A stretch of DNA of 64,000 nucleotides from Candidatus Amphirhobacter sp. (lineage in GTDB: Bacteria; Pseudomonadota; Gammaproteobacteria; Tethybacterales; Tethybacteraceae). The stretch spans positions 1,529,537 to 1,593,536 of the forward strand of contig OZ244940.1 of the NCBI GenBank assembly GCA_965222035.1, given 5' to 3'. Every line of letters starts with the position of its first letter. Within the stretch, counting starts at the first letter, position 1. Of the stretch, positions 991 to 54,375 are shown one piece after another. Made by a program: the position numbers and the translations under genes. A model generated the notes under the pieces. The model made no database searches. It was not told the origin of the DNA and saw only the letters and a list, made by a program, of their open reading frames with translations.

Positions 991-1032
991 TTCTTTAGCC
1001 GCCGGAACTCTGGCTGGCAGAGTCAAACGCCA

Positions 1033-1086: not shown

Positions 1087-2283
1087 ATGGCTGAAGAACA
1101 GCGCTCAAACAATCCATTTCGTCCAGGCACAGGCTTTGCGCCCAAATATCTGGCTGGCCGGGAGCCGGAGCAGGCCTTGCTGAAGGGGGCGCTGGATGCG
1201 ATCTGCGGCGAGCGGGATGGCAGGTATGGCCCTTTGATCGACGGGGCGCCCCGGCCTTTGAATATCATCGGCCCGCGCGGAGCGGGCAAGACAGCGCTGC
1301 TGACTTGGGCGGAGCGCGAGATCGAGCCCACGAAGGCTGACGTCGTGCGCCTGGCCGATCCGCCGGACGGCGATTCAGAGAAAGGACCCTCCATATTCCT
1401 GCGCAAGCTGGCGGACATCCCGGGCTTTGACTGGAAGCAGGCCGAAGCCCAGGTGTCCAAGTATTTCCATTTGGCGCGGAACTGGCAGCCGGGCCAGCCA
1501 CCGCTAGAGGACTTCGAGAAGGTCCTGCAGGAGCGCCTGCGGCTCCGTCCGCTGCTGATGTTGATGGACGAGGTCATGCATTTTGATCCGAAGATGCTGA
1601 AAACGATTCTGCAGCAGAGCCAGGTTTTGATGGACCGGGAATGGCCGCTGGCATTGGTGCTGGCGGGTACGCCGGCGCTGGAAGCGCACTTGGATGATGT
1701 GGATGCGACCTTCATTTTCCGCGCCGGGGACATCCACATCAACCGTCTGGAGCCTGAGGCGACGCGCGAGGCTTTGAGCAAGCCGTTCGCGGACCGCGGC
1801 GTCAAGGTGTCGGACGAAGCATTGAAGTTGATGCTGAGCTGGACCGACGATTATCCATTTTCCATCCAAGCTGTGGGCAGCGAAGTGTGGAAGGCCAAGG
1901 AGAAGCAAGGCCGGACGGAGGTGGATGTTGCCTTGGTGCAGAGCACCGCACAAGCTGTGCATAGTGAACGCGGCGGCCTGTATAAAAAGATCTACCGCAG
2001 AATCAAGAATGCCGACTTGCTGGAACAGGCACACAAGGCGGTGGCCTTCATCGAGGCTGATCCCGAGCCTCCGAAACCTGAGCAAGTGATTGACTACCTG
2101 GAGGAAGACACCAGCTTGGAATTCAAAGACGCTCTTGGAATCTACAACCAGCTGCTGGATGCCAGTCTGTTCTGGGAGTTCAATGATGACCGGGTGTACC
2201 CGGCGATTCCGTCATTTTTCAATTATTTCAAGAAAGAATACAAGCAAGGACGCAAAGCAGGACGCGCCAAGCCCAAACCGTGA
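1087..2283 (+). CDS. P-loop NTPase of the Arch_ATPase/AAA_16-like family (paralog A1)
   Basis: N-terminal NPFRPGTGFAPKYLAGREPEQ, Walker A GPRGAGKTALL, Walker B LLMLMDEV, C-terminal AIPSFFNYFKKEYK. It is similar to ORFs 53052..54215, 28207..29409 and 30546..31757. Confidence 0.7.
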   Translation: MAEEQRSNNPFRPGTGFAPKYLAGREPEQALLKGALDAICGERDGRYGPLIDGAPRPLNIIGPRGAGKTALLTWAEREIEPTKADVVRLADPPDGDSEKGPSIFLRKLADIPGFDWKQAEAQVSKYFHLARNWQPGQPPLEDFEKVLQERLRLRPLLMLMDEVMHFDPKMLKTILQQSQVLMDREWPLALVLAGTPALEAHLDDVDATFIFRAGDIHINRLEPEATREALSKPFADRGVKVSDEALKLMLSWTDDYPFSIQAVGSEVWKAKEKQGRTEVDVALVQSTAQAVHSERGGLYKKIYRRIKNADLLEQAHKAVAFIEADPEPPKPEQVIDYLEEDTSLEFKDALGIYNQLLDASLFWEFNDDRVYPAIPSFFNYFKKEYKQGRKAGRAKPKP

Positions 2284-2327
2284 AGTTAAAGGCATAGTTC
2301 CCCAAACTTAGAATCATCGCTGCACCG

Positions 2328-7424: not shown

Positions 7425-7486
7425 GCTCTGCAGACTAGATGAAGAAGATTTCGAAAAATGGTAAGATAGGCATGGGAGAGAAAAAC

Positions 7487-18624: not shown

Positions 18625-18704
18625 GCCGGCTGGGCCGGCGCCCGGGCGGTTTGCGGGCTGGAAAACATATAATTACCTTCGCTGATTCTACTAGGCATCC
18701 AGCC

Positions 18705-19730: not shown

Positions 19731-20283
19731 GGCCCTGACGGACGCCACCGGCCGCGACGGCCGCCTGCTGGCGGTCTGCGTCGGCATGCCCGCGGAGCTG
19801 CCCGGCTTCGGCGAGTGCTCGGGCATCGTCAAGAGCCCGACGGAAGAACGCGTCGTCCTGGGCCCGCGCGGCCTGGCCGGCGACGGCGTCGCCGACTCGG
19901 AAAACCACGGCCGGCCCGAGCAGGCGGTCTACGCGCTCGGCGACCGCGACCGCGACTACTGGCAGGAGCAGCTGCAGCGCGATTTGCCGCCAGGGACCTT
20001 CGGCGAGAACCTCGTCATCTCCAACATGGACACCCATGACGTGCAGATCGGCGAGCGCCTGGTGCTGCCGGACGCGGTGCTCGAGGCGGTGTGGCCGCGC
20101 ATCCCGTGCTCGAAGCTCACCCACGTCATCGGCGACCCGCGCTTCGGCAAGCGCTTCCTGCGCTCGGGCCATGTCGGCGTGTATTTCCGCGTCATCACCG
20201 CCGGCTCACTCGCCGTCGGCGACGCGACCCGCTGGGACAGAGCCCATGCGGACGGCCGCGCGATCCTCGAGCTCGCGACCTGA
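19717..20283 (+). CDS. MOSC-domain protein (YiiM-like)
   Basis: [15 protein letters not shown] ... [11 protein letters not shown] ... [18 protein letters not shown] is a MOSC beta-barrel pattern. The start codon is uncertain: there is no clean ATG between the guaC stop and the domain. Confidence 0.55.
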
Positions 20284-26316: not shown

Positions 26317-27156
26317 TCAGCGGGCCAGCAGCGAGGTGAGGATGAAATCCAGCCCCAGCAGGGTCAGCGAGGCGTACACCACGGTGCTGGTGGTCGCATG
26401 CGCGACGCCCTCGGCGGTCGGCCGGGCGTTGTAGCCATGGTACAGCGCGATGATGCTGGAAGTCAGGCCGAAGACCGCGCTCTTGAGCATCCCTTCGGTG
26501 AAGTCGCCGAAGAACTTGGTGAAGCTCTGCATGTTGCCCCAGAAGTAGCCCTCGTCCATGCCGATGCGCAGCACGACGATGGCGTAGGTCCCGACGATCG
26601 CGACCGCGAGCAGGATGATCGTCAGCAGCGGCAGGCACAATGAGCCGGCGATGAAGCGCGGCGCGATCTCGCGCTCGAGCGGGTCGACCGCCATGACCTC
26701 CATGGCCGCGAGCTGCTCGGAGGAGCGCTTGAGGCCGATCGCCGCGGTGACCGCGGTGCATGAGCAGCCGATGAACAGTAGGCCGGCGAGTACCGGGCCG
26801 AGCTCCCGGAACAGCGCGATGGCGGCCGCGGCGCCGACGACCTGGGTCTGGCCGTAGCGGTCAAGGATGGTGTGGAACTGCAGCCCGAGCACCAGCCCGA
26901 TGAACAGCCCGGAGACCACGATGATGGGCATCGAGCGCGTCCCGAGGTGGTACATCTGGATCCAAATCAGGTGCGGCCGCGCCAGGCTGGCGGGTACCCG
27001 CTTGGCGACCATCCAGCAAAAGCGCGCGAAGCCCCCGAGGTAGAAGACGTTCTCGACCAGCGGCCAGCCGAGGCGCTGGATGAAGGCGGACAGGCCTTTG
27101 CGCCGGCGGTTGCGGCCCAGGCTGCGGGGCTGGTCGGGTTGCGAGGGCTCGGTCAC
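26317..27156 (-). CDS. mlaE: ABC transporter permease MlaE
   Basis: MlaE family multi-TM protein (MPIIVVSGLFIGLVLGLQ ...). Confidence 0.9.
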   Translation of the reverse strand: MTEPSQPDQPRSLGRNRRRKGLSAFIQRLGWPLVENVFYLGGFARFCWMVAKRVPASLARPHLIWIQMYHLGTRSMPIIVVSGLFIGLVLGLQFHTILDRYGQTQVVGAAAAIALFRELGPVLAGLLFIGCSCTAVTAAIGLKRSSEQLAAMEVMAVDPLEREIAPRFIAGSLCLPLLTIILLAVAIVGTYAIVVLRIGMDEGYFWGNMQSFTKFFGDFTEGMLKSAVFGLTSSIIALYHGYNARPTAEGVAHATTSTVVYASLTLLGLDFILTSLLAR

Positions 27157-27174
27157 CGGCGGGATTGGAGTGGC

Positions 27175-27987
27175 TCAGTCGCGGCCGAGGCGCAGGTCGC
27201 CGCGGTAGTCGCTGCCCGGCAGGTGGAAGGGCAGCGGCCCGTCGGCGCGGCCGTGGATGAACTGATTGACGATGGGATCGTCCGCGGCGTTCATCTCAGC
27301 GGGGGTGCCCGTGGCGATGACCCGGCCGTGCCACATCAGGCAGACGTGGTCGGCGATGGCGAAAGTCTGCTCGACGTCGTGGGTGATGATGATCGAGGTC
27401 GAGCCGAGATGGTCGTTGAGCTCCTTGATCAGGTTGGCGATGATGGTCTGCGAGACCGGATCGAGGCCGGCGAAGGGCTCGTCGTAGAGCAGGATATGCG
27501 GGTCGAGGGCGATGGCGCGCGCCAGCGCCACCCGCCGCTGCTGTCCGCCGGAGAGCTCGGAGGGATAGCGCTCGGCGGCCGACCGCAGCCCGACCGCGTG
27601 CAGCTTCAGCAGCACCAGGTCGTGGATGGCGGCCTCCGGCAGGCGGCTGTGCTCGCGCAGCGGGAAGGCGACGTTCTCGCCGACCGACAGGTCGGTGAAC
27701 AGCGCCGGGTTCTGGAACAGCATGCCCAGCCGCAGCCGCAGCCGGTAGAGCCCGGCGAGGTTGAGCTTCTCGACGTCCTCGCCATCGACGTTGACCGATG
27801 CTCCTGCCGGAATCGGGTACTGTCCGGTCATCAGGCGGACCATGGTGGTCTTGCCGCTGCCGGAGCCGCCCATCAGCGCCACGATCGAGCCGCGCGGTAC
27901 GCTCAGATCGACGCCGTGCAGGATCTGGGTGTCGCGGCCCGGATAGGTGAAGCTGAGGTTCTTGATCTCGACAGCGGGCGTGCTCAT
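27175..27987 (-). CDS. mlaF: ABC transporter ATP-binding protein MlaF
   Basis: Walker A GGSGSGKTT, signature LSGGQQRRVALARA and Walker B ILLYDEP. Confidence 0.9.
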   Translation of the reverse strand: MSTPAVEIKNLSFTYPGRDTQILHGVDLSVPRGSIVALMGGSGSGKTTMVRLMTGQYPIPAGASVNVDGEDVEKLNLAGLYRLRLRLGMLFQNPALFTDLSVGENVAFPLREHSRLPEAAIHDLVLLKLHAVGLRSAAERYPSELSGGQQRRVALARAIALDPHILLYDEPFAGLDPVSQTIIANLIKELNDHLGSTSIIITHDVEQTFAIADHVCLMWHGRVIATGTPAEMNAADDPIVNQFIHGRADGPLPFHLPGSDYRGDLRLGRD

Positions 27988-28059
27988 GAGGCGACCGGAG
28001 GGCAGATGGGAGAGGGGGCGGCGGCAGCGCCGCCGAGTGCTATTTTACTAATGCCTAGG

Positions 28060-28206
28060 CTAAGGAGATATGTGCTTGCTTGACAAGCCTGCGTCTAGTC
28101 CGCTTCAAGCGAGGCTTGGCGTACCCGAAGGCTGGATGTGGCGCGCAACCTGCGAAATCAAAATCTTGTTGGGATTGTGTCAAGCAAAGTATGTGGCTTG
28201 CTATTT
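28060..28206 (-). repeat. Conserved intergenic module of about 140 bp (copy 1 of 4) flanking the ATPase paralogs
   Basis: It shares blocks ...gcNcctagttcgctt ... aggcttggcg ... ggctgNatgtggcgcgcNaNcctgcgaaatcaaaatcttgttggga... with copies at 29410..29568, 30390..30545 and, partially, 31758..31936. Confidence 0.6.
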
Positions 28207-29409
28207 TCAGCCTTGCTGCGCGGCCCGCTGTTTCTTGGCTTGCACGTACGTGAAGAACGAAGGGATGCCGGCCTCCATCTGGTCTTCATCCCCCTCCCAG
28301 ATGAAGCCTAGCCACTGCAAGCTATCAACGATTTCCCGAGCCTTTTCCGCGTCGATATCGCTGTTCTTCTGCCGCAAATCGTACTCAATGGTCTCTCGCT
28401 CTGCCTTGGCCTCTTCTTGCCGGTGGATGGTCTCGGCTACCTGCAAGGCATATGGCGTGAGTTCTTTATCGTTCATCTCCTTATAGATTTTGCGGTAGAA
28501 ATACTTGCGCTCCGTCCTTATCGCTCCTTGGGCTTTCTCCACCAGCGCGACGTCGACGCGCCGCTTCCCCTTGGAAGGCAGGGTCTCCCAGACCTCCGCC
28601 CCCACCAGCTGGACGAAATAAGGGTAGTTGTCAGTCATGCCCCACATCATCTCCAAGGCCTCCGGCTCGACCTCGATGCCGCGGACGGTGAACGGCTTGC
28701 TGAGCGCGTCCTTGCTCTCCTCGGTCGCCAGCAGGTTGATGTAGATGTCCTTGCTCCTTGTGATGAAGGTAGCGCCGATCTTCATCAGATAACTGTTCAA
28801 ATCCGGAGTACCCGCAAGCAGCATCACCAAAGGGTACTTCGCATTGATCAGCCGCTGCCCAATATGCAGCATGAAACCCATGATGTCTTCTTCATAATGA
28901 TGGGCCTCGTCCATTAGCAGGACCATGGGCCCCTTGCGCAGCCTGGCATGCAGAACCTCCTCGTAAGTTTCAGCGGCCTTTCCCAGGTCCAGGCGGACGC
29001 CGAGATCGGCATAGGAAACCTGGAAGCCCGTCACCCTCTTCAGCCACTTCAGCAAGAAATGATCCTTGCCGGCTATCTCCTTGAGCAGGCGCCCCATCGC
29101 ATCGCCTGCCGTCAGGTTCTTGACATGCGCCAGCCGCGCCACGTGGATGCCCTCCTCCTGGGCCCGCTCCTCCATCCAGCCAAGCAGCAGCGTCTTGCCC
29201 ACCCCGCGGGGACCGGTTAGCACCACCGGCGTCATCGACGTATCTTCCAGCAAGCCATTTTTCTGGATCTCGCTCGGGGCGATGCCTTGCAGGGCTCTGT
29301 TCAGCAGCTTGAATTCTCTCTTCCGGCCGACGACATGCTGCGGACGGGTCCCGGCACCGGGAGCAAACGGGTTTTTGTTCTGTTTGGCGGGCGAGGCAGA
29401 CATAACCAT
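28207..29409 (-). CDS. P-loop NTPase of the Arch_ATPase/AAA_16-like family (paralog B1)
   Basis: NPFAPGAGTRPQHVVGRKREF, Walker A TGPRGVGKTLL, Walker B VLLMDEAHH and C-terminal GIPSFFTYVQAKKQRAA. Confidence 0.7.
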   Translation of the reverse strand: MVMSASPAKQNKNPFAPGAGTRPQHVVGRKREFKLLNRALQGIAPSEIQKNGLLEDTSMTPVVLTGPRGVGKTLLLGWMEERAQEEGIHVARLAHVKNLTAGDAMGRLLKEIAGKDHFLLKWLKRVTGFQVSYADLGVRLDLGKAAETYEEVLHARLRKGPMVLLMDEAHHYEEDIMGFMLHIGQRLINAKYPLVMLLAGTPDLNSYLMKIGATFITRSKDIYINLLATEESKDALSKPFTVRGIEVEPEALEMMWGMTDNYPYFVQLVGAEVWETLPSKGKRRVDVALVEKAQGAIRTERKYFYRKIYKEMNDKELTPYALQVAETIHRQEEAKAERETIEYDLRQKNSDIDAEKAREIVDSLQWLGFIWEGDEDQMEAGIPSFFTYVQAKKQRAAQQG

Positions 29410-29568
29410 ATTTTAGGGGATTATATGGAATTTATATGCTTATCTTGACAAGTTTGTGCCTAGTTCGCTTTTAATAAAAGGCTTGGCGGCCCAAGGGACT
29501 AGATGTGGCGCGCCATCCTGCGGCAGCGATATCTTATTGGGATTGCGACACGCAAAGCATGTGGCTTG
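29410..29568 (-). repeat. Conserved intergenic module (copy 2); contains the near-palindrome CTTGACAAG and an SD-less leader
   Basis: See the module alignment. In gene orientation it ends ...TATAATCCCCTAAAATATGGTTATG. Confidence 0.6.
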
Positions 29569-30389
29569 CTAGTTTCTACCCTGCTTCGCGGCCCGCTGTT
29601 TCTTGGCTTGTATATAGGTGAAGAACGAAGGGATGCCAATCTCCAGCCGGTCTTCCTCTCCGCGCCAGATGAAACCCAGCCACCGCAGGCGCTCGACAAT
29701 GCTCCTGGCATCTGCCGCGCCTAGATCGCTGTTCTCTTGCTGCAGAACGATCTCGATGTCCTTCACCCCCACTGCGGCGCATTGTTGCCGGGTGATGGCT
29801 TCGGCTGCCTGCAAGGCATATGATGTGAGACCTTTAGTACTCATCTCATCATAGAGCAGGCTGAAGAAATCCCTGAGGTCGTCGCTTAGCTCCCCTTGCA
29901 CTTGATCGAACAGCGCGACATCTACTTGCCGCCTCCCTTCTTTGGGCAAGGATTTCCAGATCTCCGCTCCCACCAGCTGGACGAAATACGGATAGTTGTC
30001 AGTCATGCCCCACATCATCTCCAGAGCCTCCGGCTCGACCTCAATTCCCCGGTCGGCGAACGGCTTCCTGAGCCCGTCCTTGCTCTCCTCGGTCGCCAGC
30101 GAATTGATGTGAATCACCTCGCTGCGTTCCAGGAACCCCGCGTCGATCTTATTCAGATAGCTGAGCAGGTCCGGCGTGCCCCCCCCCGCGGGCCCGTCAG
30201 CACCAACGGTGCCATTGACGGACGCTCTAGCAGGCCATCTTCCTGGATCTTGCACCTGTCAATGCCTTGCAAGGCCCCTTCTAGCAGGGCAAACTCTCTC
30301 TTGCGGCCAGCGACATGCTCCGGGCGGTGCCCGGTCCCGGGAGTAAATGGTTTTTTCCTCCGCTTGGCAGGCTGGGCGATCATAACCAT
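29569..30389 (-). pseudogene. ATPase paralog B2 disrupted by an internal deletion of about 380 nt plus a frameshift
   Basis: An N-terminal fragment (30153..30389, ending just after Walker A: LTGPRGGARR) and a C-terminal fragment (29569..30255, starting at the post-Walker-B region ...TPDLLSYL...) lie in different frames. The Walker B region is missing. Confidence 0.65.
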
Positions 30390-30545
30390 ATTTTAGGGGA
30401 TTGCAGGGGGTTCGTATGCTTTATTTGAGAAAACTGCGCCTAATTCGCTTTATTGAAAGGCTTGGCGCATCAAGTGCTGGCTGTAGTATGCCAACCTGCG
30501 AAATCAAAATCTTGTTGGGAATCGGCTGGCAAGGGGTGTGGCTGC
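30390..30545 (-). repeat. Conserved intergenic module (copy 3)
   Basis: See the module alignment. Confidence 0.6.
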
Positions 30546-31757
30546 CTAGCCTCCATTCTCCGTTGCGGCCTGCTTTTTTTTGGCTTGCAGGTAGGTGAAG
30601 AAAGAGGGAATGCCAGCTTCCATGCGGTCTTCCTCTCCCTGCCAGATGAAACCTATCCTCTGCAGGCTATCGACAATGTCCATGGCTTCGTCTTCGCTGA
30701 GCTTCTTATTGCTCTTCCTCAAATCGTTCTCAATGGTCTCGCGCTCCGCCCTGGCGTCCTGTTGTCGGTTGATGGTCTCAGCTGCCCGCAAGGCATGTGA
30801 TGTGAGCTTGCCCTTATACAGCTCGGCATAGATGTCTCGGTAGAAATACTTGTGCTTGCGGCTTATGGCCATCTTGGCCTGCTCCACTAGCGCGACATCG
30901 ACGCGCCGTTTTTCGTCGTCTTTGGGCAATAACTTCCAGACCTCCGCCCCCACCAGCTGGACGAAATAAGGGTAATTGTCGGTCATGCCCCACATTATCT
31001 CCAGGGCCTGTGGCTCGACCTCGATGCCGCGGTTGGCGAACGGCTCGCTGAGCGCTTCCTTGCTTTCCTCGGTCGCCAGCAAGTTGATGTAGATTTTCTC
31101 ACTCCTTGACATGAACGTCGCTTCGATGTTCGTCAGATAGCTAGGCAGATCCGGAGTGCCCGCCAACAATATCACCAAAGGGTACTTCTCGTTAATCAGT
31201 CGCTGCCCGCTCTGCAGCATGAATCCCATGATGTTTTCTTGGTAATGATGGGCCTCGTCCATCAGCAAGGCCAAGGGACCCTGGCTCAGCCGGGCCCGCA
31301 AAACTTGCTCGAAACCGTCAGCGGGGTCATCGCGAAGGTCCACGCCTAAGCCGAAGCCGGGAATGGATGCATTGAAGCCCTTCACCGCCTTCAGTGCCTT
31401 CTTGTCCGCGCCGCGGGCCAGCTCTTTGAGCAGGCGCCCCATCGCATCGCCTGCCATCAGGTCCTTGGCATGCGCCAGCCGCGCCACATTGATCTCCATC
31501 TCCTGGGCCCGTTCCTGCATCCAGGTGAGCAACAGCGTCTTGCCCACCCCGCGCGGGCCGGTGAGCACTATCGGCGGTGTCAAATCATGCTCCAGCAGGC
31601 CATCTTCTTCCCGGACCTCGCTCGGAGCGATGCTTTGCAGGGCATCCTCCAGCACGTCGAACACATCCTCCCGGCCGGCGACATACTCCGGGGTGTGCCC
31701 GGTACCGGGAGTGAATGGTTTTTTTCTCCGCTTGGCAGGCTGGGAAGTCATAACCAT
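30546..31757 (-). CDS. P-loop NTPase of the Arch_ATPase/AAA_16-like family (paralog B3)
   Basis: KPFTPGTGHTPEYVAGREDVF, Walker A TGPRGVGKTLL, Walker B ALLMDEAHH and C-terminal GIPSFFTYLQAKKKQAA. Confidence 0.7.
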   Translation of the reverse strand: MVMTSQPAKRRKKPFTPGTGHTPEYVAGREDVFDVLEDALQSIAPSEVREEDGLLEHDLTPPIVLTGPRGVGKTLLLTWMQERAQEMEINVARLAHAKDLMAGDAMGRLLKELARGADKKALKAVKGFNASIPGFGLGVDLRDDPADGFEQVLRARLSQGPLALLMDEAHHYQENIMGFMLQSGQRLINEKYPLVILLAGTPDLPSYLTNIEATFMSRSEKIYINLLATEESKEALSEPFANRGIEVEPQALEIMWGMTDNYPYFVQLVGAEVWKLLPKDDEKRRVDVALVEQAKMAISRKHKYFYRDIYAELYKGKLTSHALRAAETINRQQDARAERETIENDLRKSNKKLSEDEAMDIVDSLQRIGFIWQGEEDRMEAGIPSFFTYLQAKKKQAATENGG

Positions 31758-31936
31758 ATTTTAGGGGATTGCAGAGGGTTTATATGCTTGATTTGAGAAA
31801 ACTGCGCCTAGTTCGCTTGAAAAAAGATTGGGCGTACCAAACGGCTGAATGTAGCGCGCCAGCCTGTCGCAGCAATGTCCGATAAAGAATGGCATCAAGA
31901 AAAGTAGATTATTCCCTATAATAAAAGGCGCTGCTG
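31758..31936 (-). repeat. Partial copy of the conserved intergenic module, upstream of the first ATPase gene of the array
   Basis: The 5' blocks (atgcttgatttgagaaaactgcgcctagttcgctt ... atgtagcgcgcc) are conserved. The remainder diverges towards the trpD start. Confidence 0.5.
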
Positions 31937-32968
31937 ATGAACGAAGACTGCTACCTGCGCGCGCTCGGTACCCTGGGAGCGGGGAAGGAGCTTGAGCCCG
32001 GCCTGCTCGAAGAGGCCCTGGCCGCGATCCTGGCGGGCGAGTGGAACGAGGTCGAGGTCGCGGCCTTCTTGACCGCGCTGCGCATGCGGGGCGTAACCAG
32101 CGCCGAGGTGGCGGTCGCCGCCCGCTACCTGCTGGGCATTATGAGGCCGGTGGAGCTGCCGGACGCCGCCGCGGTGCTCGATACCGCCGGGACCGGCGGC
32201 GACCGCAAGGGGACCTTCAACATCTCGACCGCCGCCGCCTTCGTCGCGGCCGCCTGCGGCGTGCGGGTCGCCAAGCATGGCAACCGCGCCATGTCCGGCA
32301 CCTGCGGGAGCTCGGACATCCTCACGCGCCTCGGCGCGCGCCTCGACCTCGCGCCGGAAGCGCTCGCCGCCTGCCACCAGCGGGCCGGCATCTGCTTCCT
32401 CGCCGCGCCCGCCCACCATCCGGCGCTCAAGGCGGTCGGGCCGGTGCGCGCCAAGCTGCGGGTGCGCACGATGTTCAACCTGCTCGGGCCGCTGCTCAAT
32501 CCCGCCCGCGCCGGCTGCCGCCTGGCGGGCATCTACGACGGCGCCTGGGTGCGGCCCTATGCCGAGGTCCTGCGGGACCTGGGCGTGCGACGGGCGGTGG
32601 TGGTGCATGCCGCTGACGGCACCGATGAGTTCGTGCTCGCCGGCCCGTCGCATTACGCGGTGCTCGATGAGCAGGGCGAGGTCAGCGAGCGCGAGTTCGA
32701 TCCGGCGACGCTCAAGCTGGGCGAGCATGATCCTGCGGCGCTGCTGGCGGCGGACCCAGCGGAGGCCGAGCGTCTGTTCAACGCCGCCATCGACGGCAAG
32801 GAGCCCGCGCCCGCCGCCGCGGTGGTACTCAACGCCGCCGCCGCCTTGTTCGCCGCCGGCAAGGTAGCGGAACTGGCGGACGGCATCGCCCCAGCGCAAG
32901 AGGCGATCGCCAGCGGCCAGGCGCGCGCCAAGCTGGACGAGTTCATCGCAGTCACTCAAGAGCTGTGA
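31937..32968 (+). CDS. trpD: Anthranilate phosphoribosyltransferase
   Basis: LDTAGTGGDRKGTFNISTAAAFVAAACGVRVAKHGNRAMSGTCGSSD. Confidence 0.9.
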   Translation: MNEDCYLRALGTLGAGKELEPGLLEEALAAILAGEWNEVEVAAFLTALRMRGVTSAEVAVAARYLLGIMRPVELPDAAAVLDTAGTGGDRKGTFNISTAAAFVAAACGVRVAKHGNRAMSGTCGSSDILTRLGARLDLAPEALAACHQRAGICFLAAPAHHPALKAVGPVRAKLRVRTMFNLLGPLLNPARAGCRLAGIYDGAWVRPYAEVLRDLGVRRAVVVHAADGTDEFVLAGPSHYAVLDEQGEVSEREFDPATLKLGEHDPAALLAADPAEAERLFNAAIDGKEPAPAAAVVLNAAAALFAAGKVAELADGIAPAQEAIASGQARAKLDEFIAVTQEL

Positions 32969-33753
32969 GCGCCGGCTTGCCGGCGATCCTCGCGCACAAG
33001 CGCGAGGAGGTGGAAGCGGCCAAGCGGGAACTGGACCTGCCTGCGCTGCAAGACCGGGCTGCGGCGCAGGAACCGCTGCGCGGTTTTGCGCAGGCGCTGC
33101 GGCAGTCAAGCGAGGGGCTGGCGATCATCGCCGAGATCAAGCGCCGCAGTCCCAGCGCTGGCGACTTGCGCATCGACGACGATGTCGCGGCACGGGCGCG
33201 GCAGTATCGCGAAGGCGGCGCAGCTTGTCTCTCAGTACTCACCGACGCCGCTTTCTTCGCCGGATCGGCCGATGACCTGGCGGCGGCGCGCGTGAGCGTG
33301 GCGCTGCCGGTACTGCGCAAGGACTTCATCGTCGATGCCTGGCAGGTGCATGAGACCCGGGCGCTGGGAGCCGACTGCATGCTGCTGATCGCCGCTGCCA
33401 TGGAACCAGGTGAACTGGTTGATCTCGCCGGTCTCGGCCGCGAGCTGGGCCTGGATGTGTTGGTCGAAATCCATGCCGAGGGCGAGCTAGAGGCGGCGCT
33501 GGCAGCCGGGACCGGCTTGCTCGGCATCAACAACCGCGACCTGCGTACGATGACGATTGACTTAGGGGTGACCGAGGCCCTGGCGCCGCAGGCGGCTGCG
33601 GCTGGTTGTTTGGTGGTGGCTGAGAGCGGCATCAGCACCGTCGCCGACGCGCGCCGCGCCCGGCAGGCCGGAGCTGGATCGTTGCTGGTGGGCGAGGCGC
33701 TGATGCGCAGCGAGGATCCCGCGGTGCTGCTGGCTGAGTTGGCGGCCGCTTGA
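32965..33753 (+). CDS. trpC: Indole-3-glycerol phosphate synthase
   Basis: ILAHKREEV ... IIAEIKRRSPSAG ... LTDAAFFAGS ... LRKDFIVD. Its GTGA overlaps trpD. Confidence 0.9.
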   Translation: MSAGLPAILAHKREEVEAAKRELDLPALQDRAAAQEPLRGFAQALRQSSEGLAIIAEIKRRSPSAGDLRIDDDVAARARQYREGGAACLSVLTDAAFFAGSADDLAAARVSVALPVLRKDFIVDAWQVHETRALGADCMLLIAAAMEPGELVDLAGLGRELGLDVLVEIHAEGELEAALAAGTGLLGINNRDLRTMTIDLGVTEALAPQAAAAGCLVVAESGISTVADARRARQAGAGSLLVGEALMRSEDPAVLLAELAAA

Positions 33754-33768: not shown

Positions 33769-35349
33769 TCAGCGATTGATGGGTGGCGGCAGGACCTTGG
33801 CGGAGTGCCGCCAGAGGGGCTCGTCATAATAGGTTGGGACGTAGTCGTCGCTGTAGACTAGCAAGTCCCTCAAGTCCTTGTAAATCCTGAGCATCCCGAT
33901 TCGCCTGACGGGGGCATAATTAGTGTCAAGGACAACAACGCCATAGGTGAGGAGGTGTGAGAACAATTTCCGGTCCGGGTGCTTGGATTGGATGTCTTGG
34001 AACTTCTCTTTATCATAGATGGGGACATTGCGATGCAGGTAGTAGTAGCTGAAATGCTGCATATCAAAATACACACCTTCTAAATCCTCTTGTTCATGCA
34101 GCCAGGTGAGGCCGGCAAAGAAGCCAGGGGTGTTGTGCAGGTAGCCGAGCTGGTAGGGGTCTTTGTCAAAGCTCCCGACCTTGTAGATCCAATTGTCCTT
34201 GACGTAGCCGAGCGCGACCAGCAAGCCGAAGACCAGCTGCAAGGCGATCAGGCCGCGGGTCAGGTCATGGCGCAGCTCGCGCAGCTGGGCGTGGCGGAAC
34301 CAGGTGCTCAACAGCCAAGCCGCGGTCGGCATCCACAGGAAGAACATCGGCGCCACATAGCGGAATTCCTTGTGGGGAGATAGCATGTGCGGCAGCATGA
34401 TCGCCAGTGCCATCAGCAGGGTCAGCAGATGCAGGCGCGGCCGCCACAGCCAGGCGAGGACGGCGAGCAGGATGTAGCCAGCCGAGATGAACAGCAGCCG
34501 CTGAGGGTAGAAGATCTCGCCGCCGCCTCTGTGGAAGTCCTCCGGTGGATTGAGATTCCACAGCATGTGCATGTAGATCGAGTTGAACGGGCGTCCCCAG
34601 GTGAGGAAATCCAGCAAGCCGTAGGCGAGTATGGCCAGCAGTCCACCTGCGATAGAACGCAAGGCCCAGCGTGCGGGCATGGCTGCGGCCACCGCCAGCC
34701 ACAGGATGCCGAGCGCCGGCAGGTAGAGGTAGCGCAGGAAGGCGGCGACGCCGAGCATGATGCCGAATACCCAGGCGCCGGCGTCGCCGCGGATGAAGGG
34801 CCGGCCAGCCAGGCCCATGGCCGATGCTAGCATCACGCCGGCCAGCATGCCGGTCAGGGTCTTGGCCGCGAAGGCCAGCAGATAGAAGTTAAAGACGCCG
34901 AGCAGCAGCGCGATCCGCCCGGCGACCTCGCCGTGCTGGTGCCGGGTGAAATGGTATAGGCCCCAGGGGATTAGCAATGAGAAAACACAGAAGAATGCCT
35001 CGACGAAGGGGACGTAGTAAGCGGGGTGGTCGATGCCCAGCCACTTGAACGGCAGCAGCAGCGCCGCGACGACGCCCGGCAGCAGATAGCTGCGCCCCCC
35101 CCAGTGTGATTCCCAGGTGATGATGCCATAGCCAAACGCCAGCCGATGTCCCTGCTCCAGGTATTGCTGGATTTCGTCGAGGTAGGCGATGAAGTCAGAG
35201 AACATATGCAGGCCGAGCCGCAGCAGCAGCGCCGCCGCCAGGCAATGCGGCAGGTAACGCCAGGACGGCTGGACCGTCGCGCCTGGCGCCTGGTACAGAT
35301 TGAGGTGGCGCAGCTGGAGCAGCATGTTGGAGATGACGTTCGTGCTCAT
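33769..35349 (-). CDS. GT-C membrane glycosyltransferase, GT22/PIG-B/Alg9-like, array copy 1 (distal); hallmark motif partly degenerate
   Basis: Multi-TM N-terminus with first-loop motif YLDEIQQYLEQGHRLAFGYGIITWESHWGGRSYLLPG (LDE/TWES instead of PDE/TWEW) and a C-terminal soluble domain of about 150 aa. Confidence 0.65.
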   Translation of the reverse strand: MSTNVISNMLLQLRHLNLYQAPGATVQPSWRYLPHCLAAALLLRLGLHMFSDFIAYLDEIQQYLEQGHRLAFGYGIITWESHWGGRSYLLPGVVAALLLPFKWLGIDHPAYYVPFVEAFFCVFSLLIPWGLYHFTRHQHGEVAGRIALLLGVFNFYLLAFAAKTLTGMLAGVMLASAMGLAGRPFIRGDAGAWVFGIMLGVAAFLRYLYLPALGILWLAVAAAMPARWALRSIAGGLLAILAYGLLDFLTWGRPFNSIYMHMLWNLNPPEDFHRGGGEIFYPQRLLFISAGYILLAVLAWLWRPRLHLLTLLMALAIMLPHMLSPHKEFRYVAPMFFLWMPTAAWLLSTWFRHAQLRELRHDLTRGLIALQLVFGLLVALGYVKDNWIYKVGSFDKDPYQLGYLHNTPGFFAGLTWLHEQEDLEGVYFDMQHFSYYYLHRNVPIYDKEKFQDIQSKHPDRKLFSHLLTYGVVVLDTNYAPVRRIGMLRIYKDLRDLLVYSDDYVPTYYDEPLWRHSAKVLPPPINR

Positions 35350-36926
35350 GGTTTGATGGGCGGCGGTAGGATTTTAGCGGAATGCTGCCAGAGAGGCTCG
35401 TCATAATAGGTTGGGACGTAGTCGTCGCTGTAGACTGGCAAGTCCCTCAAGTCCTTGTAAATCCTGAGCATCCCGATTCGGCTGACGGGGGCATAATTAG
35501 TGTCAAGGACAACAACGCCATAGGTGAGGAGGTGTGAGAACAATTTCCGGTCCGGGTGCTTGGATTGGATGTCTTGGAGCTTCTCTTTATCATAGATGGG
35601 GACATTGCGATGCAGGTAGTAGTAGCTGAAATGCTGCATATCAAAATACACACCTTCTAAATCCTCTTGTTCTTGCAGCCAGGTGAGGCCGGCAAAGAAG
35701 CCAGGGGTGTTGTGCAGGTAGCCGAGCTGGTAGGGGTCTTTGTCAAAGCTCCCGACCTTGTAGATCCAATTGTCCTTGACGGCGCCAAGCGCTACCAGCA
35801 TCCCGAAAATCAGCTGGATGCCAATCAGGCCGCGGGTCAGGTCATGGCGCAGCTCGCGCAGCTGGGCGTGGCGGAACCAGGTGCTCAACAGCCAGGCCGC
35901 GGTCGGCATCCACAGGAAGAACATCGGCGCCACATAGCGGAATTCCTTGTGGGGAGATAGCATGTGCGGCAGCATGATCGCCAGTGTCATCAGCAGGGTC
36001 AGCAGATGCAGGCGCGGCCGCCACAGCCAGGCGAGGACGGCGAGCAAGATGTAGCCAGCCGAGATGAACAGCAGCCGCTGAGGGTAGAAGATCTCGCCGC
36101 CGCCTCTGTGGAAGTCCTCCGGCGGGCTGAGGTTCCACAGCATGTGCATGTAGATCGAGTTGAACGGGCGTCCCCAGGTGAGGTAATCGAGCAAGCCATA
36201 GGCGAATATGGCCAGCAGTCCACCTGCGATAGAACGCAAGGCCCAGCGTGCGGGCATGGCTGCGGCCACCGCCAGCCACAGGATGCCGAGCGCCGGCAGG
36301 TAGAGGTAGCGCAGGAAGGCGGCGACGCCGAGCATGATGCCGAATACCCAGGCGCCGGCGTCGCCGCGGATGAAGGGCCGGCCAGTCAGGCCCATGGCCG
36401 CCGCCAGCACCACGCCGGACAGCATGCCGGTCAGGGTCTTGGCCGCGAAGGCCAGCAGGTGGAAGTTGACGACGCCGAGCAGCAGCGCAATCCGCCCGGC
36501 GGTCTCGCCGTGCTGCTGCCGGGTGAAATGGTACAGCCCCCATGGAATCAGCAGCGAGACGATGCAGAAGAAGGCTTCGACGAAGGGGACGTAGTAAGCG
36601 GGGTGGTCGATGCCCAGCCACTTGAACGGCAGCAGCAGCGCCGCGACGACGCCCGGCAGCAGATAGCTGCGCGCCCCCCAGTGCCATTCCCAGGTTGTCA
36701 GGCCGTAGCCGAAGGCCAATCGATGCCCCTGCTCCAGATACTGATACAACTCGTCCGGATAAGTGATGAAGTCTGAGAACATATGCAGCCCGAGCCGCAG
36801 CAGCAGCGCCGCGGCCAGGCAATGTGGCAGGTAGCGCCAGGACGGCTGGGTCGTTGGTCCGGGAGCTTGGTAAAGTCCAAGGCGGCGCAGCTGGAGAAGC
36901 ATGCTAGGGATGGTGCTTGCGCTCAA
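35346..36926 (-). CDS. GT-C membrane glycosyltransferase, GT22/PIG-B/Alg9-like, array copy 2
   Basis: YPDELYQYLEQGHRLAFGYGLTTWEWHWGARSYLLPG. It is nearly identical to copy 1 over long stretches and has a 4-nt overlap with its neighbours. Confidence 0.7.
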   Translation of the reverse strand: MSASTIPSMLLQLRRLGLYQAPGPTTQPSWRYLPHCLAAALLLRLGLHMFSDFITYPDELYQYLEQGHRLAFGYGLTTWEWHWGARSYLLPGVVAALLLPFKWLGIDHPAYYVPFVEAFFCIVSLLIPWGLYHFTRQQHGETAGRIALLLGVVNFHLLAFAAKTLTGMLSGVVLAAAMGLTGRPFIRGDAGAWVFGIMLGVAAFLRYLYLPALGILWLAVAAAMPARWALRSIAGGLLAIFAYGLLDYLTWGRPFNSIYMHMLWNLSPPEDFHRGGGEIFYPQRLLFISAGYILLAVLAWLWRPRLHLLTLLMTLAIMLPHMLSPHKEFRYVAPMFFLWMPTAAWLLSTWFRHAQLRELRHDLTRGLIGIQLIFGMLVALGAVKDNWIYKVGSFDKDPYQLGYLHNTPGFFAGLTWLQEQEDLEGVYFDMQHFSYYYLHRNVPIYDKEKLQDIQSKHPDRKLFSHLLTYGVVVLDTNYAPVSRIGMLRIYKDLRDLPVYSDDYVPTYYDEPLWQHSAKILPPPIKP

Positions 36927-38476
36927 CGCCTGATGGGCGGCGGCAGGATCTTGGCAGAGTGCTTCCAGTTATCGTCCGAGGCAAAATCGGAACTGTAATC
37001 TTCGGTGTAAAGCGGACCAGTCCTAACATCTTCGTAGATTTTCGCACTGCCGATTTGCTTGACCAGGCGCAAGGAGGGCGAGGAAATCAGATTATAGGTG
37101 AGGATGTGCGAGACCAGTTTCTTGTCGGGGTTCTGCTTGGTGGCATGATCGAACATCGACAGATTGTAAATAGGAATATTGCGATGCAGGTAGTAGTAAT
37201 TAAAATTATGCACGGCAAACAATATGCCTTTCACATCATCTTGTTCTCGTATCCAGGCGATGGCAGGAAAGAAGTCGGGAGTGTTGTGGAAATAGCCGAG
37301 CTCGTTGTTGTCTTTGACATAGTCGCCGACGCTGTAAATCCAGTTATCATTGACGGTGTCGGACGCGACCAGCATGCTGAAAATCAGTTGAATGCCAATC
37401 AGGACGCGCGTTAGGTCATGGCGGTAAGGACGCACCCGGGCGCGCCGGCTCCAGATGCTGAGCAGCCAGGCCGCGGCCGGCATCCACAGGAAGAACAGCG
37501 GTGCCACATAGCGGAACTCCTTGTGGACGGTCAGCATGTGCGGCAACAGGATAGCCAGGTACAGCAGCATGGTCAGCAGATGCCGGCGCGGTTGCCGCAG
37601 CCAGGCGAGGATGGTAAGCGCGAGGCAGCCGGCCGAGATGAACAGCAGCCGCTGTGGATAGAAGATCTCGCCGCCGCCGGTGTGAAAGCCCTCCGGCGGG
37701 CTGAGGTTCCATAGCATGTGCATGTAGATTGAGTTGAACGGCCGCCCCCAGGTGAGATAGTCGAGCAATCCATATGCGATCACCACCAGCATCCCGCCAG
37801 CGATGGAGCGCAAGACCCAGCGCGCGGGCATGGCTATGGCGACCGCCAGCCACAGGATGCCGATGGCGGGCAGGTAGAGGTAGCGCAGGAAGAAGGCGAA
37901 GCCGAGCAGGATGCCGAACAGCCAGGCGCCCGCGTCGCCGCGGATGAATGGCCGTCCCGCCAAACCCATCGCGGCCGCCAGCATCACGCCTGACAGTGTC
38001 TCGGTCAAGGTTTTGGCCGCGAAGGTTATCAGGTAGAAGCTGACGACGCCGAGCAGCAATGCGATCCGCCCGGCGGCCTCGCCGTACTGATGCCGGGTGA
38101 AGTGGTACAGACCCCAGGGGATCAACAGCGAGACAACGCAGAAGAAGGCTTCGACGAAGGGGACGTAATAGGCGGGATGGTCGATGCCTAGCCACTTGAA
38201 TGGCAGCAACAGGGCGGCGACGACCCCGGGCAGCAGATAGCTGCGTGCCCCCCAGTGCCATTCCCAGATCGTAATGCTGTAACCGAAGGCCAGCCGATGG
38301 CCTTGCTCTTGGTAATGCCAGATTTCATCCGGAAAGGCGATGAAGTCCGAGAAGATATGCAGCCCAAGCCGCAGCAGCAGTGCGACAATCAGGCAATGAG
38401 GCAGGTAGCGCCATGACGGCTGGGGAGTCGTACCTGGCGCTTGGTACAGATTGAGGCTGTGCAGTTGGGCAAGCAT
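36923..38476 (-). CDS. GT-C membrane glycosyltransferase, GT22-like, array copy 3
   Basis: FPDEIWHYQEQGHRLAFGYSITIWEWHWGARSYLLPG. Confidence 0.7.
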   Translation of the reverse strand: MLAQLHSLNLYQAPGTTPQPSWRYLPHCLIVALLLRLGLHIFSDFIAFPDEIWHYQEQGHRLAFGYSITIWEWHWGARSYLLPGVVAALLLPFKWLGIDHPAYYVPFVEAFFCVVSLLIPWGLYHFTRHQYGEAAGRIALLLGVVSFYLITFAAKTLTETLSGVMLAAAMGLAGRPFIRGDAGAWLFGILLGFAFFLRYLYLPAIGILWLAVAIAMPARWVLRSIAGGMLVVIAYGLLDYLTWGRPFNSIYMHMLWNLSPPEGFHTGGGEIFYPQRLLFISAGCLALTILAWLRQPRRHLLTMLLYLAILLPHMLTVHKEFRYVAPLFFLWMPAAAWLLSIWSRRARVRPYRHDLTRVLIGIQLIFSMLVASDTVNDNWIYSVGDYVKDNNELGYFHNTPDFFPAIAWIREQDDVKGILFAVHNFNYYYLHRNIPIYNLSMFDHATKQNPDKKLVSHILTYNLISSPSLRLVKQIGSAKIYEDVRTGPLYTEDYSSDFASDDNWKHSAKILPPPIRR

Positions 38477-38496
38477 GCTGGAAACGGACCCTTCGC

Positions 38497-40050: not shown

Positions 40051-40069
40051 GCTGGAACGGCGCTCGCGC

Positions 40070-41623: not shown

Positions 41624-41627
41624 GCTG

Positions 41628-43184: not shown

Positions 43185-43203
43185 GCTGGAGGTTGTGCCA
43201 CGC

Positions 43204-44757: not shown

Positions 44758-44775
44758 GCTGGAGGTTGTGCCACG

Positions 44776-46326: not shown

Positions 46327-46346
46327 GCTGGGGACGGCGCCCGCGC

Positions 46347-53007: not shown

Positions 53008-53051
53008 TGGGATCTATTCCTTTGGCTTAACGAGGTTTGGCTTGGCGCGCA

Positions 53052-54215
53052 TCAGGCGTGATCCCGCTTGTATTCTTCCTTGAAATAATTGAAGAATGAC
53101 GGAATCGCCGGGCCTACCCTGCGGGAGCTAGGTTGCCAAAACAAGCCAGCATCCAGCAGCTGGTTGTAGATTTCAAAAATGCGTTGCTCGCCCAAGTCGG
53201 TGCCTTCCGCCAGGGAGGTACGCACTTGCGCAGGCGTTAGGGGCTCAGGCGCGGCCTCAATGGCCGCCACCGCCTTCATCCCATGTTCCACCAAGTGGGC
53301 GGTTTCGATGATCTCGTAGATCGATTCGTAAAAATCATCGCGTTGTTTGTGCACGGCTTGCTCTACGCTCCGCACCAAGTCCACATCCACCTTCGCGGCG
53401 CCCTTCTTGGCCTTCCAGACTTCACTGCCCACGATCTGGGTGAAATAGGGATAATTGTCGGTCCAGCTCACCATCAGCTCCAGCGCCTCGCCCGCCACCA
53501 TCACGCCGCGGTCCTGGAATGGCCTGCCTAAGGCCTCGCGCGTCGCAGCGGGCTCCAGAGCATTGATGTTGATGTCCCTAGAGCGGTGAATGAAGCCCGC
53601 CTTCACCTGAATTAAGCGTGAGTTCAATGCCGGTGTCCCCACCAGTACCAATGCCAGCGGCCATCCTGATCTGGCTAGGAGCTGATACTGATTAAGCATC
53701 AGGTCCAGCATGTCCAAATCGTAATGTATGACATCGTCCAGCACCAGCATCAGCGGACGGAAACGCAGGCGTATCGCCAGGATCCTCTCGAACTCCAGCG
53801 CCGGCTTCCCAGGCTGCCAGTCCAGTGCCCACTGAAGATAATCGCTCTCCCAAGCTGGGATCTGCTTCCGGTCCAAGCCTGGGATGTCGGCCAGTTTGCT
53901 CAGGAGCGCGGAGAGCGCATCATCTGAATCGGCATTCGGCTCATGGGACAGGCGCACGAAATCGGCATCCAGGGACTCAGCTTCGCGCCGCGCCCAGTCC
54001 AACAGCGCCATCTTGCCCATCCCGCGCGGGCCGACGATTTTCAAATGCTGCGGTGGCCGGCCGCGCAAAGGGCCGTAGTCTTTTTCCCGCTCGCCGCAGA
54101 TATCGGCCAGCGACCGCTTGATCAAGGACTGCTCTGGCTCCCGCCCCGCCAGATGATCGGGTACTGAGCCTGAGCCTGTGTAAAACGGATTGCCCGCAGT
54201 CTGTTCTTCCGTCAT
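53052..54215 (-). CDS. P-loop NTPase of the Arch_ATPase/AAA_16-like family (paralog A2)
   Basis: NPFYTGSGSVPDHLAGREPEQ, Walker A GPRGMGKMALL, Walker B LMLVLDDV and C-terminal AIPSFFNYFKEEYK. It is the closest relative of paralog A1 (1087..2283). Confidence 0.7.
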   Translation of the reverse strand: MTEEQTAGNPFYTGSGSVPDHLAGREPEQSLIKRSLADICGEREKDYGPLRGRPPQHLKIVGPRGMGKMALLDWARREAESLDADFVRLSHEPNADSDDALSALLSKLADIPGLDRKQIPAWESDYLQWALDWQPGKPALEFERILAIRLRFRPLMLVLDDVIHYDLDMLDLMLNQYQLLARSGWPLALVLVGTPALNSRLIQVKAGFIHRSRDININALEPAATREALGRPFQDRGVMVAGEALELMVSWTDNYPYFTQIVGSEVWKAKKGAAKVDVDLVRSVEQAVHKQRDDFYESIYEIIETAHLVEHGMKAVAAIEAAPEPLTPAQVRTSLAEGTDLGEQRIFEIYNQLLDAGLFWQPSSRRVGPAIPSFFNYFKEEYKRDHA

Positions 54216-54375
54216 GTCTGTATTTTAATCCCGCAGCGTATTGATTGCCAAGAAAAGGGAACTAATGCATGCGACTTCACGGCTTTGATCCGGAGCATGG
54301 ACGGCCAAGCATCCGTTTCCCAAACAGCTAGCTCGTCTTAGCGGAATCCGTGAAGTTAAAGGAACAATCCCCCGC

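Follow-up and report, generated by a model that had tools for sequence, protein, structure and literature searches.

Compact STAND/ORC-like ATPases on cassette-like insertions: an amplified gene family in a Candidatus Amphirhobacter genome

Why do three related ATPase genes stand in a row between trpD and mlaF in a 64,000-nucleotide stretch of Candidatus Amphirhobacter sp. (contig OZ244940.1, positions 1,529,537 to 1,593,536; hereafter the window), and how did they get there? The genes encode P-loop ATPases of ~400 amino acids (aa), lie head-to-tail on the minus strand at window positions 28054-31914, and the middle one is broken (Table 1). An initial annotation of this DNA had described the array together with two distant paralogs (here p4 and p5), and it left the choice between a signalling or defence ATPase and a selfish element open. 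We favour, with moderate confidence, a joint reading in which the genes are non-autonomous mobile or duplicative cassettes that carry a minimal STAND/ORC-like ATP switch with a probable role in genetic conflict.

The 3,861-bp block is a true insertion, because in a sister species (MlaF 84% identical) trpD and mlaF are divergent and only 71 bp apart, with no ATPase genes between them. The junction of this empty site reads ...TTATTATAGG|CATTAGTAAAAT..., and in the window the same halves are parted by the block. The proposal that the array had been inserted between trpD and the mla operon is borne out by this site, and its extent, given earlier as 28020-31936, is corrected to the bounds above. 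Pfam matches on the two flanks are to MlaF and MlaE on one side and to TrpD and TrpC on the other. TAGG stands at either junction and represents either a 4-bp duplication or microhomology. The insert starts at the first base of a ~150-nt spacer element and runs element, gene 3, element, gene 2 (dead), element, gene 1, element, so that four elements bracket three genes. Most likely, a stretch of a longer tandem array was copied into the trpD/mlaF site.

Open reading frames (ORFs) lie exactly where the initial annotation had placed the two intact genes and the broken copy. The DNA repeat period in the array is 1368 nt, of which ~150 nt are the non-coding element, in agreement with the expected unit of ~1.37 kb with a spacer of ~150 bp. 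Compared with copy 1, copy 2 has lost 388 nt, close to the ~380 nt first estimated, and as this is not a multiple of three the frame is shifted. The deletion lies between GCGGG microhomologies, starts inside the Walker A codons (from GVGKT on) and ends just before AGTPDL; Walker B, as had been noticed, and the sensor-1 strand are also gone. A 78-aa N-terminal fragment (30153-30389) and a 228-aa C-terminal fragment (29569-30255) are left, and both halves are otherwise open. Copy 3 read from its third codon gives a 401-aa protein identical to P0001 (the NCBI call), and the third codon is probably the true start of the tandem copies.

Identity is 65-66% between copies 1 and 3 and ~60% between the broken copy 2 and either of them, yet tandem neighbours are not one another's closest relatives. 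Copy 2 is closest to P0093 and P0095, elsewhere in the genome (82-85% identity), copy 3 to P0012 (74%) and copy 1 to P0069 (68%). Among the three copies the pairwise ratio of nonsynonymous to synonymous substitutions (dN/dS) is 0.38-0.48 and dS is 0.49-0.65; thus, the copies are old and under purifying selection. Over the first 70 codons, copies 1 and 3 give a dN/dS of 0.96 from few sites only. As reported before, the array has a GC content below background (0.56-0.58 versus ~0.68 in flanking genes). It is lower at all three codon positions, with values at third positions (GC3) of 0.71-0.77 in array genes versus 0.77-0.94 in neighbouring housekeeping genes.

The second clean insertion in the window is p5. 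Both distant paralogs are real; they share 57% identity with one another and 34-36% with the tandem copies. In the sister species yhdP overlaps a CN-hydrolase gene (ATGA) and the site has no ATPase gene, and in the window p5 lies between the two. Its ends form imperfect inverted repeats whose alignment comes within 0-2 nt of the junctions, a score reached by 2 of 2000 shuffles. At the orthologous p5 insertion of another species (L094) no shuffle of 2000 reached the score, and the aligned stretch lies 8-9 nt inside the boundary. The left end of p5 matches the right end of p4 at 24 of 29 positions (0/2000 shuffles) and that of L093, where a copy with 85% identity occupies a third site, at 19 of 23 (1/2000). 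A terminal 15-mer occurs exactly twice in the window, at the 5' edge of p5 and the 3' edge of p4, in opposite orientation relative to the genes. A gapless repeat finder alone did not place the p5 pair above chance pairs. Scanning metagenomes with the 15-mer gave 120 chance matches, none with a family gene or an extended motif, and the terminal motif was not found in the 92 family loci examined. Because terminal inverted repeats and a target-site duplication occur here with no transposase, the p4/p5 subfamily appears to be non-autonomous; a putative autonomous partner would have a transposase flanked by ends of the GGGGRAYTRTKCCTTTAACTTCACGG type. The p5 insertion, its terminal repeats and its target duplication lend support to the selfish-element option.

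A gene for a XerC/XerD-type tyrosine recombinase (2328-3245, plus strand) begins 45 nt after p4, just past the right terminal repeat. It is the only tyrosine recombinase in the window by Pfam, and it may be a housekeeping xerC/D gene that stands there by coincidence.

What kind of protein do these genes encode? Among Pfam families only AAA_22 (PF13401; cut-off 27 bits) is passed, by copies 1 and 3 (45.0 and 46.0 bits) and by p4 (35.2), p5 falling under it at 24.9 bits. The tandem copies do not reach the cut-off of AAA_16 (PF13191; 32.4 and 31.3 versus 32.6 bits, p4 and p5 ~22), which the distant relatives P0111, P0120 and P0108 pass (42-46 bits), nor that of ATPase_2/Arch_ATPase (PF01637; 22.0 and 23.9 versus 33.2 bits). 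Scores are also below the cut-offs of the Orc1/Cdc6 profiles (TIGR02928, 13.7 versus 181.3 bits; the ORC-CDC6-like PF24389, 14-15 versus 27) and of IstB_IS21 (12.8 versus 24.1 bits). Pfam matches to nSTAND1 and nSTAND6 are weak, PHROGs was uninformative (phrog_6841, function not annotated), and no domain was recognised in the C-terminal extension of P0099 and P0100. No profile assigned the proteins to a characterised housekeeping ATPase. The earlier assignment to Arch_ATPase/AAA_16/STAND-like proteins fails at the Pfam cut-offs, where AAA_22 alone is passed, but it holds by fold.

An AlphaFold2 model of copy 3, made from a 28-sequence family alignment, is confident (predicted local distance difference test 85; predicted template modelling score 0.83). 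The model predicts a Rossmann-type ATPase core (residues ~55-225) in which an insert at 126-143 has low confidence, then a helical lid (229-275), a helical region that includes a helix-plus-beta-hairpin unit (288-381), and a terminal helix. The helix-plus-beta-hairpin unit resembles a winged helix, and the tripartite STAND layout (nucleotide-binding domain, helical domain, winged helix) is present in the model. Foldseek against the PDB placed archaeal Orc1/Cdc6 first by E-value (2qby, a structure bound to origin DNA; 2.4e-11). The top global superpositions were with the Arch_ATPases 2qen and 2fna, with template modelling (TM) scores of 0.60-0.61 by query and 0.67-0.68 by target and E-values of 7e-11 and 7e-10. 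Lower matches included RuvB, clamp loaders and the plant NLR ZAR1 (6j5t), and there was no transposition ATPase among the 50 fold matches listed.

The motifs TGPRGVGKTLL, LLMDEAHH and GIPSFFTY-x-QAKK are present as first described. The N-terminal NPF does not hold for copy 3, which has KPF, and the motif as corrected is PF-x-PG-x-G-x-x-P-x-(H/Y)V-x-GR. Residue conservation, scored over 95 close relatives, forms blocks at Walker A, Walker B (MDEAHHY), the sensor-1 strand, the TDNYPYFVQ lid motif and the C-terminal GIPSFFTY, and variation is concentrated at residues 100-150 and 291-360 and at the termini. In the lid, T-D-N-Y-P-Y-F-V-Q stands at the place of the GxP motif; P263 and Q267 are invariant and the glycine is replaced. 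A near-invariant F-x-x-R is a candidate arginine finger. In p5 and in P0416 (same contig, 74% identical), Walker A reads GPRGMGKM, with methionine for serine or threonine, and Walker B reads LDD, with DD for DE. To judge from these residues, p5 and P0416 are probably members that bind ATP but are deficient in hydrolysis, and they are nonetheless maintained.

How large is the family? The five copies counted in the initial annotation are all in the window, but this number understated the family. In two homolog searches, the tandem-copy subfamily had at least 13 intact genes on the source contig (1,855,096 bp) and the p4/p5 subfamily at least 19. Together with the pseudogene, these at least 32 intact paralogs take up ~2% of the contig's DNA, and the description of an uncharacterised multi-copy family stands. 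The C-terminal fragment of copy 2 is identical to P0104, which, like P0001, is encoded on this contig; the contig is therefore where the window comes from. A profile search of 1.84 billion representatives returned 902 clusters at E <= 1e-30, nearly all of 370-420 aa and matched end to end; thus, the family is a single module without fused domains. One member, P0260 (749 aa), is a head-to-tail fusion of two family modules, which fits the frequent tandem arrangement.

Relatives are encoded at 505 loci (one genome per species), and the best 80 of these were used for the analyses of distribution and neighbours. They include the sponge-named lineages AqS2, Candidatus Spongiihabitans and Candidatus Poriferihabitaceae; the others are mostly metagenome-assembled genomes of Paracoccaceae, Gammaproteobacteria, Spirochaetia, Vicinamibacterales/Bryobacterales, Nitrospirales and Longimicrobiales. 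The family spans at least five phyla, many genomes have several copies, and tandem sets occur in 16 of the loci. For two ABC-permease ORFs of the window, an AqS2 scaffold carries counterparts with 80-83% identity, and by such similarity the host is most likely an AqS2-family (Tethybacterales) sponge symbiont. The sponge-symbiont literature, as far as searchable, held no description of the ATPase family. Distant relatives were found on plasmids in mobilome neighbourhoods: one adjoins tnsA-tnsB-tniB, and those on Clavibacter plasmids follow a parA-like gene. As a clue to replication or partition these plasmid contexts proved inconsistent. On viral contigs there was one distant relative only.

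Each array gene is flanked by the ~150-nt element, which within the window occurs at four places, all at the array. In another genome it is also found beside family genes, at different sites on the chromosome (nhmmer E-values 1e-22 to 1e-29). On the gene strand it consists of a ~65-nt segment after the stop codon, a GC-rich inverted repeat, a T-run and an A/T-rich stretch that ends TAAAAT-ATGGTT-ATG. The conservation is at the level of sequence (AAGCGRAC-AG, TCAAG..AAGCATATAA). A structured RNA or attC-like spacer was rejected, as RNAalifold on four and then nine copies gave weak energy and two compensatory pairs, and the pairs are broken in locus L081. Rfam found no family in window positions 27000-33000, and scans for sigma-70 promoters and terminators did not rise above shuffle expectation. 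We also dropped an IS200/IS605-like array, which TAGG at the target and right end and direct-orientation subterminal hairpins would have suggested; the 5' element is missing from locus L082, a Y1 transposase was not seen and the hairpin lacks conservation. The array does not behave as a set of integron cassettes, as an attC-like structure is poorly supported and there is no integrase at the array. We read the element as a DNA-level feature that may serve, for example, to start or end transcription, to bind a protein or to allow recombination. Between element 1 and mlaF, the host stretch at 28019-28041 (plus strand) keeps AGTAAAAT and a GC hairpin (CGGCGGCAGCGCCGCCG), as in the empty site; it is presumably the native promoter and leader of mlaF, now downstream of the array's last element.

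In front of each of the five paralogs of the window stands TAAAAT, parted from an ATG by 6 nt, and a Shine-Dalgarno sequence is missing. The sequence is CCCCTAAAAT-ATGGTT-ATG in the tandem copies (29401-29419, 30381-30399 and 31749-31767) and GCGGGnTTAAAAT-ACAGnC-ATG in p4 and p5 (upstream of 1087 and 54215). The arrangement is confined to AqS2-related genomes. TAAAAT looks like a -10 box placed for leaderless mRNAs, and such spacing implies the third codon as the start of the tandem copies.

Amplification of the family can be followed in other genomes as well. In a Paracoccaceae genome, five copies lie dispersed and share 84-90% DNA identity across a discrete unit of ~1.5 kb. The tandem copies in L081 and L082, two loci of related genomes, are ordinary segmental duplications that carried host DNA along. 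In L082, a complete tRNA-Ser(GCU) gene was duplicated (7760-7851 and 9525-9617) along with the ATPase gene and the 3' end of mutS. In L081, a GC-rich insert of ~300 nt in the spacers (3886-4349 and 5545-6001) of a three-copy array repeats the 3' end of an upstream gene of 1433 aa and the region downstream of that gene; thus, this array arose in situ by segmental duplication. The family has been amplified independently at least three times.

All-against-all clustering of ORFs from the 80 loci revealed no conserved neighbour or operon partner. The 125 immediate neighbours fall into 106 Pfam families, none of them in more than four loci. A few are transposases (4 of 125), AbiEii-like ATPases, AAA_14-DUF4143 proteins and one Cas1. 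Sets of two or three copies in relatives of the host are flanked by mutS and tig-clpPX-lon, are flanked by an opp transporter and ogt, or lie upstream of acpP-fabF-smc. No copy in the neighbourhoods examined is accompanied by other plasmid or viral genes.

How do these proteins compare with known systems? Within the STAND NTPases, the archaeal Arch_ATPase proteins make up the 'MNS' clade, and they are multi-copy in their genomes. Like SSO1545 (2fna) and PAB2304 (2qen), the best global structural matches, our proteins have ~350-400 aa, a P-loop core, a lid and a C-terminal winged helix, lack a fused effector and share an uncharacterised function. Unlike them, they stay at 22-24 bits on PF01637, are bacterial and centred on sponge-associated lineages, have their own N-terminal PF-x-PG and C-terminal GIPSFFTY, and are encoded on cassettes with conserved ends. 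With Orc1/Cdc6 (2qby, 2v1u, 1fnn) they share an AAA+ core, a lid and a winged helix, but TM is only 0.43-0.51 with a root-mean-square deviation of 9-13 Å, profile scores are far under the cut-offs, and the lid has a GxP-like NYPYF and no obvious sensor-2 arginine motif. Antiphage STAND proteins (Avs/AVAST, bacterial NLR-like) and nSTAND proteins are alike in the nucleotide-binding, helical and winged-helix module, in lineage-specific expansion with diversification of paralogs, in the weak nSTAND1 and nSTAND6 matches and in the presence of ZAR1 among the folds. In contrast to those, our proteins are much smaller, have no effector or repeat sensor and no PADLOC match, and lie outside defence islands. 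With mobile insertion cassettes and cargo-carrying elements like miniature inverted-repeat transposable elements, p5 has in common that its ends are inverted repeats, that 7 bp of the target are duplicated, that the empty site is clean and that its only gene is not a transposase, whereas the tandem-copy subfamily has the 150-nt element in direct orientation and no recognisable inverted repeats.

Based on these results, we propose that the genes represent a lineage-specific expansion of a compact ATPase of ~390 aa, with a P-loop AAA+/STAND core, a helical lid and a C-terminal winged helix. Each gene would ride on a short cassette (~1.35-1.5 kb) with conserved non-coding ends. After insertion at new intergenic sites, cassettes would multiply by tandem or segmental duplication, and the copies would diverge and in some cases decay; the 28054-31914 block is most likely a piece of a longer tandem array that was inserted here. 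The protein may be a switch that is gated by ATP, oligomerises and uses its winged helix to bind DNA, and paralogs may have diversified in specificity. Most likely it acts in genetic conflict, as an immunity-type cargo that would pay for carriage of the cassette in a sponge microbiome rich in phage and mobile elements. We favour such a role because the family has expanded and diversified within a lineage, has low GC, has spread across phyla in one habitat and has a STAND-like fold, and our confidence is moderate because there is no effector and no match to a known defence system. A bolder version, possible but doubtful in our view, is that these are a new class of single-gene mobile elements, with a minimal STAND/ORC-like ATPase as their only product, passed horizontally among unrelated sponge symbionts. 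The ATPase would then be either a self-sufficient immune sensor and effector that assembles on foreign DNA in an ATP-dependent manner, or a promoter of the cassette's mobility or retention through the flanking DNA element.

Several observations weigh against this proposal. For the conflict role, no model in PADLOC-DB v2 or among the NCBIfam antiphage models matched; hits to Cas3, mREase and DS41 were noise (E>=0.01) that covers the P-loop or short stretches only. The family proteins have no effector domain and no further Pfam domain beyond the ATPase, and their neighbours are mostly housekeeping genes, not defence islands. For mobility, there is no transposase in or beside any cassette, and none with matching ends was found. 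The target duplication of p5 is seen against one empty site only, and the ends of the tandem block show no terminal inverted repeat (1546 of 2000 shuffles reach the score). The Paracoccaceae unit has a sharp left edge but a variable right edge of two classes. Covariation in the inverted repeat of the element is slight, two copies have the repeat broken, and in L082 the element lies only 3' (downstream) of the genes. The putative sponge habitat of the genome is read from the AqS2 identity of two ABC permeases and from the habitats of the family's relatives.

Could the ATPase instead be the element's own propagation factor, like TniB/TnsC, IstB or MuB, with the transposase supplied in trans and the cassettes purely selfish? 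Our proteins resemble TniB/TnsC and IstB in passing the AAA_22 cut-off and in the association of their genes with mobile DNA, and AAA_22, which we take to include TniB-type proteins, is the only Pfam family that they pass. The gene fills a unit bounded by terminal inverted repeats as a transposase fills an insertion sequence, copy number is very high, with pseudogenes, and one plasmid relative adjoins tnsA-tnsB-tniB. We nevertheless consider this rather unlikely: the IstB_IS21 score is about half the cut-off, the leading folds are Orc1/Cdc6 and Arch_ATPases with no transposition ATPase among those listed, a C-terminal winged helix is present, no transposase is adjacent to the window genes and few lie next to family genes elsewhere, and we know of no transposon that encodes only such an ATPase. 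Still further from what we found is a replication-initiator module, that is, an Orc1/Cdc6-type initiator with its cognate cis element, left from integrated plasmids or viruses. The origin-bound Orc1/Cdc6 at the head of the Foldseek matches, the conserved A/T-rich non-coding element that always adjoins the gene and the parA-like genes beside the Clavibacter relatives would fit, but the ORC-CDC6-like and TIGR02928 scores are far too low, no copy keeps other plasmid or viral genes, a single viral contig has a distant relative and plasmid contexts are inconsistent. We give it very little credence.

Two further explanations invoke the host rather than the element. The proteins could be domesticated, ATP-dependent regulators of transcription or the nucleoid, like MalT or IniR but reduced to the core module, that act on host-adaptation genes and are duplicated under host selection. 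An architecture of winged helix plus ATP switch would suit this, as would a conserved non-coding element up- and downstream of each copy, purifying selection on the copies and the conserved non-hydrolysing sub-branch of p5 and P0416, which suggests regulatory roles; the ATPase domain of the STAND regulator IniR was modelled on SSO1545 (PMC5760070). Yet there is no sensor domain, and the presence/absence polymorphism with the sister species, the terminal repeats with target duplication, the low GC and the spread across phyla all speak against it. About 30 regulators of one type in a reduced genome of 1.86 Mb would also be extraordinary, and we think the explanation distinctly improbable. The array might also be a simple local triplication of a resident gene by unequal crossing-over, after which one copy decayed and nothing moved. 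The initial annotation had described a duplication unit at this locus, and its paralogs and deletion pseudogene are real. The regular period, the head-to-tail copies and the homologous spacers agree with it, and the arrays of L081 and L082 clearly did arise in situ. We disfavour a simple triplication, as the site is empty in the sister species, four spacers accompany three genes and both outer ones end at the junctions, the nearest relative of each copy lies elsewhere in the genome, and the copies are old; it is very unlikely here.

What we rate as distinctive, then, is the scale of expansion in a reduced genome, the apparent spread throughout a habitat and the cassettes that have transposon-type ends and an ATPase as their only gene. 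Loss of redundant genes is the expectation for reduced symbiont genomes, yet here ~2% of 1.86 Mb is given to one uncharacterised ATPase family. The family recurs, often in many copies, among sponge-associated bacteria from at least five phyla, a pattern that suggests a function tied to the habitat and shared horizontally. The clean empty sites, together with the terminal repeats and the target duplication, provide a testable model of gene movement without a transposase of its own. The family is also a tractable bacterial entry to the minimal STAND proteins of the archaeal Arch_ATPase type, which have long been uncharacterised.

Table 1. Coordinates of the array, its flanking genes and the p4 and p5 cassettes (window positions)
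Feature	Position	Strand	Basis or remark
Whole insert, 3,861 bp	28054..31914	-	Compared with empty trpD/mlaF site of sister species (L086/L087)
Copy 1, intact ATPase gene, 400 aa	28207..29409	-	ORF, Pfam, motifs
Copy 2, pseudogene	29569..30389	-	One 388-nt deletion that shifts the frame, junction 30173-30192
Copy 3, intact ATPase gene, 403 aa from first ATG	30546..31757	-	ORF, Pfam, motifs, structure model
Flanking element copy 1, downstream array end	28054..28206	-	Stops ~20 nt before expected next ATG
Flanking element copy 2	29410..29568	-	Sequence comparison
Flanking element copy 3	30390..30545	-	Sequence comparison
Flanking element copy 4, upstream array end	31758..31914	-	Begins exactly at insertion junction
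mlaF, host gene flanking array	27175..27987	-	Pfam; JGI names of orthologues
trpD, host gene on array's other flank	31937..32968	+	Pfam
p5 element, 1,365 bp, gene 53052-54215	53009..54373	-	Empty site in L086, statistics of terminal inverted repeats
p5 terminal inverted repeats, ~24-29 bp	54345-54373 and 53009-53032	-	Alignment and shuffles
p5 target duplication AATGAGC, 7 bp direct	54374-54380 and 53002-53008	-	Compared with empty site
p4 with right end, gene 1087-2283	1087..2303	+	Right terminal repeat 2278-2303 overlaps stop codon
p4 degenerate left end, possible only	988-1008	+	Sequence comparison

Other low-GC paralog sets occur in the window. Directly after trpC, ten head-to-tail paralogs (33769-49504, minus strand; 516-552 aa; GC 0.57-0.61) appear to encode Alg9-like GT22 membrane glycosyltransferases. 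Two that were scanned score 73-86 bits on PF03901, and the others were assigned by size and arrangement. The sister species has only one GT22 gene in this position (L086, 5552-7102); thus, the set is a lineage-specific tenfold tandem amplification, which possibly diversifies surface glycans. Three further head-to-tail paralogs (15192-18624, minus strand; 386, 384 and 374 aa; GC 0.58), whose stop and start codons overlap, each carry an HNH_4 endonuclease domain at the C-terminus (35-47 bits) and make up the third low-GC tandem paralog set within 64 kb. The ORF that follows them (18621-19832, 403 aa) has no Pfam match. Lowest in GC of the whole window (0.50; GC3 0.47) is an ORF of 177 aa at 7439-7972 (plus strand), also without a Pfam match, which may be foreign DNA or not a gene.

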